The position numbers are program-made. From the NCBI RefSeq assembly GCF_054482595.1, contig NZ_CM137008.1: a DNA stretch of 64,000 bases; one strand, written 5' to 3'. The number at the start of each line of letters is the position of its first letter. The first letter of the stretch is position 1. Positions 3,001 through 12,000 of the stretch are shown in pieces.

Positions 3001-6000
3001 CCCAATCATTCCCTTCTTTGTTGCCTCGCTGATTCTCGATGGTTCCGCATCCATGATTCACAGTCTGGTTACTATTGATATGACCACCATCTTGTCGCTG
3101 ATGTATCTGGCGTTTGTGGCGACAATTGTTGGTTATGGGATCTGGGGGACGTTACTGGGACGCTATGAAACCTGGCGGGTTGCACCGTTATCGTTACTGG
3201 TGCCCGTAGTCGGACTGGCAAGTGCGGCACTATTGTTGGATGAACGCTTAACGGGTCTGCAATTTTTAGGTGCGGTGCTCATTATGACCGGGCTGTATAT
3301 CAATGTATTTGGCTTGCGGTGGCGTAAAGCGGTAAAGGTTAGAGGCTAAACCATACGCACAGAATGTGATGTCAGCACTCTGTGCGTCTGCTTTTATCGC
3401 GGGAAAAAGTACTTTACCTGGAACTCGAAAATATTGCTGTAAAGTAACGAATAATCCAGCGGAATAGAGTTACTGTCCACAGCCTGGGTCTGAATTTTAA
3501 GTATGGGATCCCGTGGGCTGATCCGTAAAATACTGGCGATTTCTGGGGTAGGAAAAGTAGGGGAGAAAGTTTCAAAGGTGCCAATGATTTTGATCCCGCA
3601 TTCATTCTCAATATATGAAAATTTGGATTTTTGCATATGTGACACGGTTAAATCAGGAAAACGTGCTACTGACATCCACGTTTCTTCTAATTGTGCTGCA
3701 TTATCCTCAATGAATCGCAGTCTCTTTATGTAATAAACCTGCTCACCAGTCACTAAATTCAGCTCAGTCGCAATAGTGGGTGAAGCATCCTGCACTTCAA
3801 ATTTCATAATCTGACTCCCTGCCTCTTTGCCGCTTTTATGCGCAATTTCACTGAAACTGTTCATGTGATCAATGTGTGCAACAAAATTCTTTTTTTGAAT
3901 GTATGTTCCTGAACCATGCTTTCTGTGAATAATTCCTTCGCCTTCCAGCAAGGATAATGCCTTACGCAGGGTATTACGCGAAACATTATAACGAACAGCG
4001 AGTTCCGCTTCTGACGGCAACAAATCACCAACATGCCATGAATTGCCATTGATTTCGGATTTAAGTAAGCGGGCAATCTTTTGAAAAATCACTTTTGCAC
4101 CTTTTAAGAGCCATTGAAAACAAGGAGTTGAGTCCTGATTGTTTTATCGTATGGCCGAGTCGTTTAATAATCACCCTGATGTTGAACAACTTTATCACTG
4201 TATTACTGTGATCAATGTACCAGGACGTATAGCTACTGCGGGATATGATATTTAAACAATGTAATCTGTTATATACCAGTAAGGGAAAATATGAAAAAAA
4301 TATTGTTAGTTTGCGCTGCGGGCATGTCAACCAGTATGCTGGTTAAACGTATGATTGATCATGCTAACGCTATTTCACTTGAAGTTAATATTTCCGCATT
4401 GGCGATTGCAGAGGCTAAAGGGAAAATTAAAAATAACGAAGTTGACGTTGTTTTACTTGGCCCGCAAGTTCGCTTTCAGAAACCAGAGATTGAAGCCGTT
4501 GCACAGGGGAAAATGCCTGTAGCCGTTATCGAGATGAAAGACTACGGCACCATGAACGGACAGGCAGTTCTTGAATTTGCGATGAAACTACTGCAAGAGT
4601 AAGAATCTAATATTATTAAACTATTACCTGAACTAACTTTTCACACATCATAAAATGGATATGGCATACATGCTTTATTGGGATGTATAAATATCCAAAA
4701 CAACAGGTATAAAAAAATGGGATTAATGGCCTCATTCGAACGTGGAATGGAACGTTTTCTTGTTCCAGTTGCTATCAAGTTAAACTCACAAAAACATGTT
4801 GCAGCGGTGAGAGATGGATTCGTTTTTACGTTTCCAATTATCATGGCAAGTTCATTAATTATATTAATTAACTTTGCCATATTATCGCCAGACGGTTTTA
4901 TTGCCGGATTACTGCATCTGAATAGCATTTTCCCCAACCTTGAAAAAGCACAAGCTATTTTTACTCCGGTAATGAATGGTTCTGTAAATATCATGTCAAT
5001 TATGATTGCTTTCCTGGTCGCCAGGAATATGGCGATTAGCTATGAGCAAGATGATCTTTTATGCGGATTAACGGCAATAGGAGCATTTTTTATTGTTTAT
5101 ACGCCATATCAGATGATAGATGGGCAAGCATTCCTGACGACCAAATATCTCGGCGCGCAGGGGTTGTTTGTTGCTGTTATCGTTGCATTGATCACCAGTG
5201 AAATATTTTGTCGCTTAGCTCGAAACCCAAAAATCACCATAACGATGCCGGCAGCTGTACCGCCTGCGGTAGCGCGTTCATTTAAAGTTTTATTGCCAAT
5301 ATTTTTTGTCATGGTGTTCTTTTCCGCACTTAATTATTGCCTGGCACTGATATCCCCGGCAGGACTAAACGATCTTATTTACACATTAATCCAGACGCCG
5401 CTCAAACATATGGGAACGAATATCTTTGCGGTAATTATCCTGGGGGCTGTGGGTAATTTCCTGTGGGTGCTGGGGATCCACGGACCTAATACCACATCGG
5501 CAATTCGAGAAACCGTTTTTTCTGAGGCTAATCTGGAGAATCTCTCCTGGGCCGCTCAACATGGCACTACCTGGGGCGCGCCATATCCGATTACCTGGAC
5601 TTCTATTAATGATGCATTCGCCAACTGCGGCGGCTCAGGTATGACGTTGGGGTTATTGTTGGCTATTTTTATCGCTTCTAAGCGTGCGGAATACCGTGAT
5701 CTGGCAAAAATGTCATTTATCCCCGGTATTTTCAATATCAATGAACCGATAATGTTTGGCCTTCCTATTGTACTTAACCCCATCATGATGGTGCCGTTTA
5801 TTATGGTTCCCATTGTTAACTGTGCCATTGGTTACTTCTTTGTTTCGATGGAAATTATTCCACCGGTTGCTTATGCCGTGCCCTGGACTACGCCCGGACC
5901 TTTAATTGCTTTCCTCGGAACCGGGGGGAACTGGCTGGCTTTACTGGTTGGTTTTTTATGTTTAGGTGTGGCGACAATGATCTATTTACCTTTTGTTATT

Positions 6001-9000: not shown

Positions 9001-12000
9001 ATTCAACCTCGATATCACACCAGAAGATAACGCGATTCTTACCAGTGGTTGTGTCGACTTTATCGGCTTTAGCTACTACATGTCTTTTACGACACAATTT
9101 TCGCCCGATAACCCGCAACTGGATTATGTTGAACCACGAGATTTGGTCAGCAACCCTTATATCGATACATCCGAATGGGGATGGCAAATTGATCCGGCAG
9201 GGCTACGTTATTCACTCAACTGGTTCTGGGATCATTTCCAGTTGCCGCTGTTTATTGTCGAAAATGGATTTGGTGCGGTTGACCAGAGACAAGCTGACGG
9301 CACGGTGAACGATCACTATCGCATTGATTACTTTGCTTCCCATATTCGGGAAATGAAAAAAGCCGTAGTTGAAGATGGTGTTGACTTAATTGGCTACACC
9401 CCGTGGGGCTGCATTGACCTGGTTTCTGCCGGAACAGGGGAAATGAAAAAGCGCTACGGAATGATTTATGTCGATAAAGACAACGAAGGGAAGGGAACGC
9501 TGGAACGGATACGTAAAGCGTCGTTTTACTGGTATCGGGATCTCATCGCCAACAATGGCGAAAATATTTGAGACTTGAGGAAGATATTACGGAGATGTCA
9601 GGCTCTGTGATCAGAGCCTGACAATAACTACATAGCGTGTTGATTATAATAGGGCACGCCGAGCGCATCCGACTTATCACTGCCAGTACCCATGTGATTT
9701 AAATCAAACGGTGGTTGTTCCTGCGATGGGGGAACAACCACGACATTGGCACAAGAAGTAACAACTGGCTGCGTGGTTTGTTCCGCAACGCCCTGCGCGG
9801 AAAAGAGAATAAGCGCAGCTGCTATTGCGGATGAAAGTGGTTTCATGATTGCCTCAGTGACGTTGTCACGTTATCAACTAGCTGTTGTAATGATTTAATG
9901 GATGTAAAAAGCGCGATTCGCCCTGCATATTGGTCATCCGGTATTTATGCGGCGGAACATCAAAGTAATTTTTGAAGGTTCGGGTCAGAGTTTGTTGCGA
10001 CTCGAAGCCATATCGTTCTGCCAGATAGAGTATCGGCTCGTTACTTTCCTTCAGCTTTTGCGCGATTTCCGTCATCTTACGGCTGCGGATGTATTGGCCT
10101 AATGAATGACCGGTTTCTTTTTTAAACATCCGTTGCAGGTGCCATTTGGAGTAACCCGAACGCTCTGACACTTTCTCCAGTGACAGTGGCGATTCCAGGT
10201 TGTCCTCGATCCAGTCCAAAATGCTATGAATGGTAATAGCGTCAGTATTGCGTCTGGACATCGTCATACCTCTTTTTTGTTTACGGCAGGACTTTCTTAA
10301 GCAAATGCTCAAGTGTTGCCACTTCGTCCGCCGTCAGGTTTTTTGTTAATTCTTGATGCAGGTTCTGGCCAACTAATTGATGGCATTGTTCGCATATTGC
10401 CGCGCCGCTGGTGGTAAGTTTTACCAGTACGCCGCGCTTATCATTCGGGTTCGGCAACCTTTCAACCCAGCCTTTACAGACCAGGCGATCCAGCATACGG
10501 GTCAGTGCTCCCAGGTCGACCGACAACACTTTTTTCAGTTCAACCGGAGTAATACACGCCGCGCAGCGGATAGAGCAGAGCACCTTAAACTGTGCCGCGG
10601 TAATATCCAGCGGAGACAGATACTCGTTAAGCAGACGATCTTTCTTCTGATTAACCATATGGATTAAGCGACCCAATGGAATAATTTCATTGAACAGATC
10701 GCTGGTACTTTTCACGTTAGTTGCCCTGGCAAGTAATTAGTTGCAGGGGATAATATTGCCCAGGCAAGTATAAGTCAAATGAATGAATTGAACGATGCCA
10801 CGTTTTGCTAAATCGGTTCAAGTTTTGGTCAATGCGATGCAAGGTTAGCTAAAGAGTGACACTTTATCCTTGTTTACCCCTTATACTTTTCGCTGATAAC
10901 CCAGATACACAGGATAACAACCACCAATGTTAGATTTGTTTAAAGCAATTGGCCTGGGGCTGGTGGTGTTACTGCCGTTAGCTAACCCATTAACAACTGT
11001 CGCGTTATTTCTTGGCCTGGCAGGCAATATGAACAGTGCCGAACGTAATCGTCAGTCGTTGATGGCCTCGGTGTACGTATTTGCCATCATGATGGTGGCG
11101 TATTACGCCGGGCAACTGGTGATGGATACATTTGGCATTTCGATTCCCGGTCTGCGAATTGCAGGCGGCTTAATCGTCGCGTTTATCGGTTTTCGGATGC
11201 TCTTTCCGCAACAGAAAGCGATTGATTCACCGGAGGCGAAAAGCAAGTCGGAAGAGCTGGAAGATGAACCCAGTGCCAATATTGCCTTTGTACCACTGGC
11301 AATGCCAAGTACCGCCGGTCCGGGAACCATAGCGATGATTATTAGCTCGGCGTCCACAGTGCGTCAGAGTTCAACCTTCGCTGATTGGGTACTGATGGTT
11401 GCGCCGCCGCTGATCTTTTTCCTGGTGGCGGTTATTTTGTGGGGAAGCCTACGCAGCTCCGGCGCAATTATGCGGCTGGTGGGCAAGGGTGGCATTGAAG
11501 CGATCTCCCGCCTGATGGGGTTCCTGCTGGTATGTATGGGTGTGCAGTTTATTATTAACGGCATCCTGGAAATCATTAAAACGTACCATTAAAAAAGGCC
11601 CGAATGGGCCTTTCAACTATTGCGTCTGTTCTTCGAGTGTCACTGGCCAGCGGCGAAATATAATGATTGACCATATTAACGCGGCAAAAGCAGGCACCGC
11701 GCCCACATAACCAATCATCGACATTGACCAGTGCAAACTCACCTGATTACCTACCAACGCACCCGCCCCGATTCCAATATTAAATATGCCGGAGAATAGC
11801 GCCATCGCGACGTCAGTAGCATCTGGTGCCAGCGCCAGCACTTTAACCTGCATACCAAGCCCGATGATCATCATCGCGATCCCCCAGAAAATACTCAGCA
11901 CCCCGAGGTGTATTTCACTGTTCGCCGCAGGTAACAGCAATGCCAGGCACACCAGCAACAGCGCAATCGCCGTACTCACCAACGCAGACGCATACTGATT

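Follow-up and report, generated by a model that had tools for sequence, protein, structure and literature searches.

What fills the space between eamA and marB in this genome, at a site that is nearly empty in E. coli K-12? In the window (the whole 64-kb stretch of DNA that was analysed), positions 3350–9627 hold 6,278 bp where the eamA and marB stop codons of K-12 (strain BW2952) are just 30 bp apart, the few tens of base pairs that the initial annotation had expected. Six intact ORFs occupy the segment, in the families named there: a regulator, PTS IIB, IIC and IIA subunits, a LamB-family porin and a GH1 hydrolase, a gene content that RefSeq annotation of an identical stretch in strain XH990 backs. 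We conclude, with a probability of about 0.9, that the segment is the E. coli bgc locus, c1955–c1960 of CFT073, already described rather than new; its layout is very probably a regulator gene, bgcR, and a divergent five-gene operon, bgcE-bgcF-bgcI-bgcH-bgcA. The segment is intact and real here, yet ordinary. Its features are the following:

3340–3349, plus strand: island-specific eamA 3′ terminus (final two codons plus stop codon) at the left junction, by direct comparison with K-12
3352–3390, minus strand: left terminal hairpin, between convergent eamA and bgcR, by fold energy
3394–4092, minus strand: bgcR, GntR/HutC-subfamily regulator of 232 aa with a GTG start, by NCBIfam, RefSeq and CFT073 identity
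4093–4290, no strand: divergent regulatory region, by nine-species alignment, with putative functional assignments
4291–4602, plus strand: bgcE, PTS EIIB of the lactose/cellobiose family, 103 aa, by TIGR00853 match
4717–6039, plus strand: bgcF, PTS EIIC permease of the lactose/cellobiose family, 440 aa, by TIGR00410 (start as called by RefSeq; a TTG upstream at 4678 is also possible)
6067–6378, plus strand: bgcI, PTS EIIA of the lactose/cellobiose family, 103 aa, by end-to-end alignment with ChbA (1wcr)
6434–8107, plus strand: bgcH, outer-membrane carbohydrate porin, 557 aa, by Pfam LamB and Sugarporin_N
8132–9571, plus strand: bgcA, GH1 6-phospho-beta-glucosidase, 479 aa, by NF007154 and catalytic motifs
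9596–9623, no strand: right terminal hairpin with a 12-bp perfect stem, between convergent bgcA and marB, by fold energy

The identification begins with CFT073, whose locus we read directly: the encoded proteins are equal in length to those of the window and share 96.1–100% amino-acid identity with them, BgcR being 100% identical to the c1960 product. The initial annotation had proposed calling the segment a known operon if it exceeded 90% identity to a characterised system, and at 96–100% to c1955–c1960 a known operon is what it turns out to be. It was listed already in 2010: PMC2831201 gives the CFT073 order as marB (c1954), GH1 (c1955), LamB-like porin (c1956), IIA (c1957), IIC (c1958), IIB (c1959), PhnF/GntR regulator (c1960) and ydeD, that is eamA (c1961), with the PTS subunits under the older annotation ‘cellobiose-specific’. 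PMC3585215 describes bgc as a five-gene PTS/hydrolase operon with a divergent GntR-type regulator, a composition equal to that in the window, and PMC4488073 names bgc together with chb, asc and bgl when it lists the cryptic beta-glucoside operons that E. coli has. The bgc locus is the fourth named beta-glucoside system of the species. That its name belongs to c1955–c1960 is highly probable, on the strength of matching composition, strain type and the 2009 abstract rather than a sequence accession; none of the cluster members read carries the protein name ‘Bgc’. The bgc paper is that of Neelakanta, Sankar and Schnetz (Appl Environ Microbiol 2009, PMID 19233952). Its locus is that of strain i484, reportedly with a porin called BgcH.

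The protein families bear out the proposed function. BgcA scores 1037.6 bits on NF007154 (cut-off 624) and carries both catalytic glutamates, E176 in NEIN (motif from residue 175) and E377 in ENG (ENGFG at 377), as expected of a GH1 6-phospho-beta-glucosidase; solved members of that class match it at up to E = 1e-241. Among solved structures, several rank ahead of E. coli BglA (2xhy, 681 bits) as relatives of BgcA, with 3pn8/4f66 (806 bits) and 8ysv best; the top entries come from Gram-positive bacteria. On NF007356 (PRK09852), which we take to be the AscB-type subfamily, BgcA stays under the cut-off of 623 with a score of 585. BgcE places its active-site Cys8 within an LLVCAAGMSTS loop that aligns with solved cellobiose/chitobiose IIB chains, and BgcF reaches 334 bits on TIGR00410 (cut-off 236). 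BgcI has a phosphorylatable His76 in LVHAQDHLM, aligned with a position that is Glu in 2lrk and that we take to be ChbA His89. BgcH has the parts of a LamB/ScrY-type sugar porin: a signal peptide and a C-terminal ...EVWW (both read from the sequence), a periplasmic N-terminal coiled-coil extension with Sugarporin_N at residues 30–56 (E = 3.9e-07) and a full LamB barrel at residues 147–557 (E = 1.8e-81). A maltoporin proper was considered and rejected, the score on the NCBIfam LamB subfamily being 204 against a cut-off of 394; phmmer returned no solved relative of BgcH.

Together these genes encode the complete outer-membrane-to-cytoplasm beta-glucoside route that the initial annotation had proposed. 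Beta-glucosides would cross the outer membrane through BgcH and be taken up and phosphorylated by the lactose/cellobiose-family PTS, with phosphate passing from EI through HPr to the IIA BgcI (His76), then to the IIB BgcE (Cys8) and onto the sugar in the IIC BgcF; in the cytoplasm, BgcA would split the 6-phospho-beta-glucoside into glucose-6-phosphate and glucose or an aglycone.

The divergent region suggests how the operon may be controlled. BgcR has full-length NCBIfam matches to HutC/PhnF/TreR-type models, all under their equivalog cut-offs; in RefSeq the product is annotated as a GntR family regulator, and one truncated copy as UTRA domain-containing. The region contains an inverted repeat, GTTTA-N16-TGAAC (4162–4187), which is a candidate BgcR operator; a CRP-like site, TGTGATCAATGTACCA (4207–4222, with TGTGA at 4207–4211); a −10-like TATGAT (4244–4249); and a putative ribosome-binding site, TAAGGGA (4280–4286). 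We compared these motifs in a nine-species alignment and then at 22 loci over about 12 genera, across which they are position-locked: TGTGA lies 82–87 nt upstream of the IIB ATG in 22 of 22 loci, and GTTYA-N16-TGMAC lies 44–45 nt further upstream in 15, the strict pattern being missing in the other 7. Between the window and CFT073 the 198-bp region differs by ten substitutions, none of them in TGTGA, the −10 or the inverted-repeat half-sites. With two mismatches to consensus, the CRP-like site is of a quality found at chance frequency in the window (23 matches against 27.8 expected), so it is just the cross-genus conservation that favours function. Owing to its poor −35, the proposed promoter went uncalled in a simple sigma-70 scan.

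From the sequence we infer a class II arrangement, with the CRP site near −41.5 and the candidate operator centred near −81.5, and a weak promoter that would depend on both cAMP-CRP and the GntR/HutC-type activator BgcR. Transcription of bgc is reportedly CRP-dependent, according to the 2009 abstract. Against the operator reading, typical HutC-family operators are 16-bp palindromes, shorter than GTTYA-N16-TGMAC. With its position some 40 bp upstream of the class II CRP site, this element could nonetheless serve an activating HutC-family regulator as its operator. Activation, unusual for the family, is the role that PMC3585215 assigns to BgcR, a GntR-type activator.

Statements in the initial annotation that substrate and regulation were unknown are outdated: PMC3585215 and PMC4488073 report cellobiose, arbutin and salicin as bgc substrates at low temperature and BgcR as a GntR-type activator. 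The same papers call bgc cryptic, growth on the tested sugars requiring selection or mutation, and use of these sugars could be a side activity, the natural substrate and BgcR inducer being another beta-linked sugar, for instance gentiobiose, a cello-oligosaccharide or, as in the B. subtilis gmu system, a beta-mannosyl/glucosyl disaccharide derived from glucomannan. The operon has a LamB-family porin of its own, extended at the N-terminus, which hints that its substrates are bulky or oligomeric; Enterobacterales associated with plants and soil, among them Erwinia, Ewingella, Kluyvera and Raoultella, keep the cassette; and BgcR is grouped by similarity with BguR and GmuR, the glucomannan-utilisation regulator (PMC3585215). 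We nevertheless consider this rather unlikely, as BgcA lies above the curated cut-off for the 6-phospho-beta-glucosidase subfamily and the literature has growth on cellobiose and aryl-beta-glucosides once the operon is activated. The locus is reported as cryptic on the tested sugars, yet about half of E. coli genomes keep it intact and it recurs as a conserved cassette in around a dozen enterobacterial genera. There is a small but real chance that its natural inducer and substrate are yet to be found; in that case bgc would serve to take up a beta-linked oligosaccharide, derived from plants or the diet, with a bearing on gut or environmental fitness.

Whether the block arrived recently is a separate question, to which the junctions and base composition speak first. 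The left break lies inside the final two eamA codons, giving ...KAVKVRG* in the window and ...KAVKVGS* in island-free K-12 (window 3290–3420 compared), the end that had been singled out for such a comparison; the right break, at 9627/9628, is directly past the marB stop. The AT-richness noted by eye holds up on calculation, with GC of 42.7% in the segment against 47.4% in the remainder of the window and about 50% in the flanks, and GC3 of 0.39–0.48 in the island genes against 0.54–0.59 in eamA, ydeE, marA, marR, marC and ydeA (marB, with 72 codons only, has 0.44). Equally AT-rich 6.3-kb windows make up 5.5% of those within the 64 kb. Elsewhere in the window, a stretch at about 49.6–56 kb has GC below that of the island. 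Both flanks do form hairpins, the left at −23.3 kcal/mol (minus strand; z = −4.2, a stability that none of 200 shuffled sequences reached) and the right at −22.6 kcal/mol (z = −4.1). The left one is a probable terminator for bgcR (and eamA); neither is followed by a clear T-tract or was called by a terminator scan. The right hairpin is kept in CFT073/Nissle and E. albertii, whereas Citrobacter, Salmonella and Erwinia lack it 3′ of their GH1 gene. The island ends also share an imperfect 16/17-nt direct repeat (3368–3384 and 9594–9609).

Across complete E. coli genomes, the full island is present in 2,493 of 5,426 (46%) and one uniform empty junction in 2,484, the pangenome distribution that the initial annotation had wanted mapped. 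An allele class with at least 99% identity to the window accounts for 1,474 of the matching genomes, and a class at about 97.4% is that of CFT073, Nissle and other UPEC strains. The commensal strain HS has the locus too, as do Nissle and an O111:H8 strain, and in the present genome set it is much commoner than ‘prevalent in septicemic and uropathogenic strains’ implies. Beyond the species, E. albertii carries the same six genes adjoining marBAR. Citrobacter, S. enterica subsp. diarizonae, Kluyvera, Raoultella, Klebsiella, Enterobacter, Cedecea and Erwinia have related cassettes, located at other loci. These data agree with the 2009 abstract, which reportedly notes bgc in E. albertii and says that Klebsiella, Enterobacter and Citrobacter have homologues.

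If some E. coli lineages had recently gained the block by horizontal transfer, at an eamA/marB site as empty as that of K-12, this would fit the lower GC and GC3, the absence from K-12 and about half of complete genomes, the cassettes at other loci in Citrobacter, Kluyvera, Klebsiella, Erwinia and others, and a BgcA whose best solved relatives outscore E. coli BglA; the terminal repeat could be its scar. We judge it improbable. Neither the ORFs nor the RefSeq annotation include an integrase, transposase or tRNA at the site; nucleotide divergence of the island from CFT073 (95.5–98.4% identity) equals that of the flanks (96.9% in eamA, 96.8% in marB); and the E. albertii copy stands at 80–85% nucleotide identity against 82–90% for the mar genes. 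Because island divergence tracks the flanks and the E. albertii copy lies beside marBAR, these comparisons argue that the block is an old presence/absence polymorphism, at about 50:50 in E. coli. The initial annotation was right that the segment is strain-variable and absent from K-12, but the word island implies a recent insertion, which does not fit this evidence. Nor is it a mobile genomic island, since it lacks mobility genes, diverges as much as its flanks and has only the 16/17-nt terminal repeat. As to direction, we infer that the block has long resided between eamA and marB in Escherichia; any horizontal transfer would predate the E. coli/E. albertii split, or the locus would have moved later only by homologous recombination via the flanks. 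What the present analysis adds to bgc is modest: the cross-genus promoter architecture (TGTGA plus GTTYA-N16-TGMAC), the terminal direct repeat and several decayed variants.

Among known systems, a chb paralogue (a second chitobiose/chito-oligosaccharide PTS operon) is highly improbable, for although the IIB-IIC-IIA order and family are those of chbBCA, the closest solved IIA to BgcI is ChbA and older annotations read ‘cellobiose-specific’, the PTS subunits score far under the equivalog cut-offs for ChbB (NF007796, 66 against 157), ChbC (NF007634, 278 against 760) and ChbA (NF007768, 107 against 148), the hydrolase is GH1 instead of GH4 ChbF, and the segment has no further ORF of at least 60 aa matching AraC-type ChbR, GH4 ChbF or the deacetylase ChbG. 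The K-12 chbBCARFG operon likewise has a split lactose/cellobiose-family PTS, is CRP-dependent and is cryptic for cellobiose, but it is porin-less and combines AraC-type ChbR and NagC with ChbF and ChbG, whereas the window has a GntR/HutC regulator, a GH1 hydrolase and a porin. The bglGFBH operon is closer in pairing a GH1 phospho-beta-glucosidase with a LamB-family porin (BglH), and like bgc it is AT-rich, cryptic and directed at arbutin and salicin; it differs in its glucose-family EIIBCA (BglF) and BglG/RAT antitermination, and the island contains neither a BglG-like ORF nor an Rfam RNA element. With ascGFB the locus shares a cryptic GH1 phospho-beta-glucosidase system for cellobiose, arbutin and salicin, but asc is porin-less, its repressor AscG is of the LacI type and its EIIBC, AscF, belongs to the glucose family. 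The initial annotation was right that the layout is not that of chb, bgl or asc. The combination of a GntR/HutC regulator, a split lactose/cellobiose PTS and a GH1 hydrolase recurs in the Gram-positive systems gmuBACDREFG (GmuR) of B. subtilis and bgu (BguR) of S. pneumoniae, which differ in gene order and have no outer-membrane porin; GmuR and BguR are repressors, whereas BgcR, according to PMC3585215, is an activator.

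The DNA between eamA (upstream) and marB (downstream), window 3350-9627, holds six intact genes by ORF calls, family profiles and RefSeq annotation. We put at roughly 90% the probability that this block is bgc, the beta-glucoside operon named by Neelakanta, Sankar and Schnetz in 2009.

Genes of the block
3394-4092, minus strand, GntR/HutC regulator gene bgcR (232 aa, GTG start)
4291-4602, plus strand, PTS IIB gene bgcE (ORF and family assignment)
4717-6039, plus strand, PTS IIC gene bgcF (start as in RefSeq)
6067-6378, plus strand, PTS IIA gene bgcI (ORF and family assignment)
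6434-8107, plus strand, porin gene bgcH (ORF and family assignment)
8132-9571, plus strand, GH1 gene bgcA (ORF and family assignment)

The closest described counterpart is a six-gene block of uropathogenic Escherichia coli CFT073, c1955-c1960, which a 2010 comparative genomics study labelled 'PTS system, cellobiose specific' and recorded in HS, UTI89 and several further strains, with MG1655 and O157:H7 lacking it (PMC2831201). Its flanks are marB (c1954) and ydeD, that is, eamA (c1961), and its genes are given as 6-phospho-beta-glucosidase (c1955), LamB-like porin (c1956), IIA (c1957), IIC (c1958), IIB (c1959) and a PhnF/GntR-type regulator (c1960) (PMC2831201 supplement). When we compared the CFT073 locus directly with the window, all six proteins were equal in length and 96.1-100% identical, the regulator at 100%. 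The initial annotation had treated identity above 90% with a characterised system as the sign of a known operon; by that measure the locus is a known operon, very probably bgc. Our literature search returned a description of the composition of bgc and the CFT073 gene table, and no text in which 'bgc' is expressly linked with c1955-c1960 or with ydeD/marB. A search for source names such as 'BgcR' across the protein clusters that hold the six products gave generic names only.

The 2009 abstract reportedly names the porin BgcH, describes bgc as CRP-dependent, reports bgc* mutants with a promoter point mutation, and places bgc in E. albertii with homologues in Klebsiella, Enterobacter and Citrobacter. 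We recovered the E. albertii copy and the homologues in those three genera independently, in agreement with that account. The same abstract is said to assign BgcF to IIC and BgcI to IIA, a usage that follows the gene order and that we adopt here. The reverse assignment, BgcF as IIA and BgcI as IIC, appears in a paper citing that work (PMC3585215).

Several lines of evidence indicate that the block is an old resident of the site and not a recently inserted island. Between the window and CFT073, the island genes are 95.5-98.4% identical at the nucleotide level, against 96.9% for eamA and 96.8% for marB. In E. albertii, all six genes directly adjoin marB-marA-marR, at 80-85% identity to the window for the island genes and 82-90% for the mar genes. 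Together, these identities and this placement mean that the block has occupied the site since before E. coli and E. albertii diverged, or else that homologous recombination has been its only route of exchange. We rejected a mobile island because the block contains no mobility genes, its divergence resembles that of its flanks and the E. albertii copy lies beside the mar genes. Citrobacter sp. On2M, S. enterica subsp. diarizonae and Erwinia psidii carry the complete six-gene cassette at different loci, and rearranged forms, in which the GH1 gene lies upstream and inverted, are found in Kluyvera, Raoultella, Klebsiella, Enterobacter, Cedecea, Buttiauxella and Ewingella.

In K-12 (BW2952), the eamA and marB stop codons are 30 bp apart. 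The left break falls within the last two eamA codons: the sequence common to the window and K-12 ends ...GCGGTAAAGGT, past which the window reads TAGAGGCTAA (..VRG*) and K-12 reads GGGAAGTTAA (..VGS*). The right break lies directly 3' of the marB stop, at 9627/9628. GC content is 42.7% in the island versus 47.4% in the remaining window, and GC3 is 0.39-0.48 in its genes versus 0.54-0.59 in eamA, ydeE, marA, marR, marC and ydeA. The lowest-GC 6.3-kb stretch of the window, more AT-rich than bgc, is ~49600-55900 (40.3%), which holds safA, ydeO, ydeN and ydeM by annotation transferred from the near-identical strain XH990. Both terminal hairpins are far more stable than shuffled sequence; they are Escherichia-specific, and the cassettes of other genera lack them. 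With these gene, junction, GC and hairpin results, every particular of the initial description holds, from the six genes between eamA and marB and their AT-richness to the flanking hairpins and the eamA 3' end.

An imperfect direct repeat, GATGTCAG[CA/G]CTCTGTG (16/17, shuffle p ~0.002), is found at both ends of the island, each copy inside a terminal hairpin:

3368-3384, terminal direct repeat, left copy
9594-9609, terminal direct repeat, right copy

This suggestive but weak signal may be an old insertion scar, or chance. The hairpin at the empty K-12 site has GAGATGTC.GG in common with the island right end (shuffle p ~0.02), and we found no similarity between the 30-bp K-12 spacer and the left end. 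Because the resemblance is weak on one side and absent on the other, an origin of the empty allele by simple excision is unsupported.

The wider distribution, which the initial annotation had proposed mapping, gives a nearly even split. By megablast, 2,563 of the 5,426 complete E. coli genomes contain the island interior (at least 80% coverage in 2,493, partial in ~70), and it forms two identity classes of at least 99% (1,474 genomes) and 95-99% (1,091 genomes). In 2,484 genomes the K-12-type junction is contiguous, with sampled rows showing 98.4-100% identity. From these counts, the eamA/marB site is essentially biallelic, with one uniform empty allele. The range of bgc, 46% of complete genomes with commensals and B1 pathotypes included, exceeds what the original 'septicemic and uropathogenic' label implies. 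Decayed alleles also occur. In NZ_CP029328.1, an internal deletion fuses a bgcR remnant to a truncated porin and leaves the GH1 gene intact; in NZ_AP027822.1, a deletion starts in mid-eamA and stops 139 bp short of the island right end, so that two-thirds of eamA (its 3' part) and the whole island apart from those last 139 bp are gone. Strains F11 and 536 are recorded as keeping only c1955 and c1960 (PMC2831201 supplement). Five megablast island places fall on plasmid-typed records, and as many as three places are found in some genomes. One 4.83-Mb RefSeq chromosome labelled 'strain DH5alpha' (NZ_CM135829.1) carries the full island at 99.5% identity, unlike the K-12 derivatives sampled here, whose junction is empty; this is probably a mislabelled or contaminated record.

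Conservation of the divergent intergenic region, aligned from nine species with a pattern check over 22 loci, suggests how the operon might be controlled. All 22 loci have a TGTGA 82-87 nt before the IIB start codon, and in 15 of the 22 an inverted repeat, GTTYA-N16-TGMAC, begins a further 44-45 nt upstream. In the window, the candidate elements are:

4162-4187, inverted repeat of the GTTYA-N16-TGMAC pattern, from the cross-species alignment
4207-4222, CRP-like site TGTGATCAATGTACCA, containing the conserved TGTGA
4244-4249, -10-like TATGAT, read in the window

A transcription start near 4256 would put the CRP-like site in a class II position (centre about -41.5), with the inverted repeat centred about -81.5 on the same helix face, a geometry that would fit a weak promoter dependent on an activator plus CRP. 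This putative architecture draws on conservation: a CRP consensus search across the window showed no enrichment and scored this match no better than chance, so it is conservation that argues for the CRP-like site. Across the 198-bp regulatory region, the window and CFT073 differ by ten substitutions, none in the core elements, namely the TGTGA site, the half-sites of the inverted repeat and the -10. A consensus scan of the island for sigma-70 promoters and terminators returned sites no more numerous than in shuffled sequence and called neither the proposed operon promoter nor the end hairpins. The family of BgcR is known mainly for repressors. BgcR itself is reported as an activator in the citing paper (PMC3585215).

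Elsewhere in the window, a 1,331-bp IS2 copy (41961-43291; TnpA and TnpB ORFs above NCBIfam cut-offs, 32-nt terminal inverted repeats) breaks the fimbrial usher gene of a ydeQRST-type cluster into fragments at 41214-41963 and 43255-45201. XH990, otherwise near-identical, lacks this IS2, and a 5-bp alignment overlap suggests a target duplication. At ~39769, between hipA and the fimbrial cluster, 878 bp are missing relative to XH990, where the segment contains a helix-turn-helix pseudogene together with the initial ~230 bp of a fimA-like major subunit gene; the fimbrial operon appears to have been inactivated twice, once through this deletion and once through IS2. The sole Rfam gathering-level match in the 64-kb window is the Hfq-binding sRNA STnc560 (639-852, 281.9 bits), in a region annotated as mgtS/mgtT in XH990. 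A complete lsrACDBFG / lsrRK autoinducer-2 locus lies at ~23000-31700, between tam and the autotransporter/hipBA region. In CFT073, tam adjoins hipB directly with no lsr genes, and lsr is a second presence/absence difference from CFT073 in the same neighbourhood.

The proteins bear out the initial functional reading, an uptake and hydrolysis route for a beta-glucoside, in their family assignments, active-site residues and catalytic motifs. Over its full length, the regulator matches GntR/HutC-subfamily models (PhnF, TreR, HutC and others); it reaches no equivalog cut-off among them. The three PTS proteins are of the lactose/cellobiose family; IIB Cys8 (LLVCAAGMSTS) aligns with the active site of solved cellobiose/chitobiose IIB proteins, and IIA His76 with the position mutated to Glu in ChbA entry 2lrk. 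The porin combines a signal peptide with a Sugarporin_N coiled-coil segment (residues 30-56) and a complete LamB barrel (147-557, E = 1.8e-81); phmmer against solved structures gave no match for it, so profile methods (Pfam, NCBIfam) were needed. The hydrolase scores 1037.6 bits against 6-phospho-beta-glucosidase subfamily NF007154 (curated cut-off 624) and carries both catalytic motifs, NEx and ENG; in its search, several solved 6-phospho-beta-glucosidases outscore E. coli BglA. The porin and the GH1 enzyme fall in one 90%-identity protein cluster of 14,022 members, which suggests that fused or read-through gene calls in some assemblies bridge the two.

The layout had been described as that of neither chb, bgl nor asc, and we likewise rejected membership of all three: the PTS proteins fall far below the curated ChbB, ChbC and ChbA cut-offs, Rfam finds no RNA element inside the island and hence no bgl-type antitermination, and asc was considered and set aside. 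The locus has been named and its phenotype characterised since 2009, and RefSeq annotates it routinely; our additions are small, namely the current distribution, the evidence for old residence, the junction anatomy and the cross-genus promoter architecture. We see in bgc, beside mar, a well-defined case of an old presence/absence polymorphism, split ~50:50, in the carbohydrate metabolism of E. coli; its conserved promoter architecture supplies concrete targets for BgcR studies. In the literature, bgc is counted among the cryptic operons, alongside chb, asc and bgl (PMC4488073), and described as the fourth E. coli beta-glucoside system, a five-gene operon with PTS IIB, IIA and IIC and the phospho-beta-glucosidase BgcA (PMC3585215).
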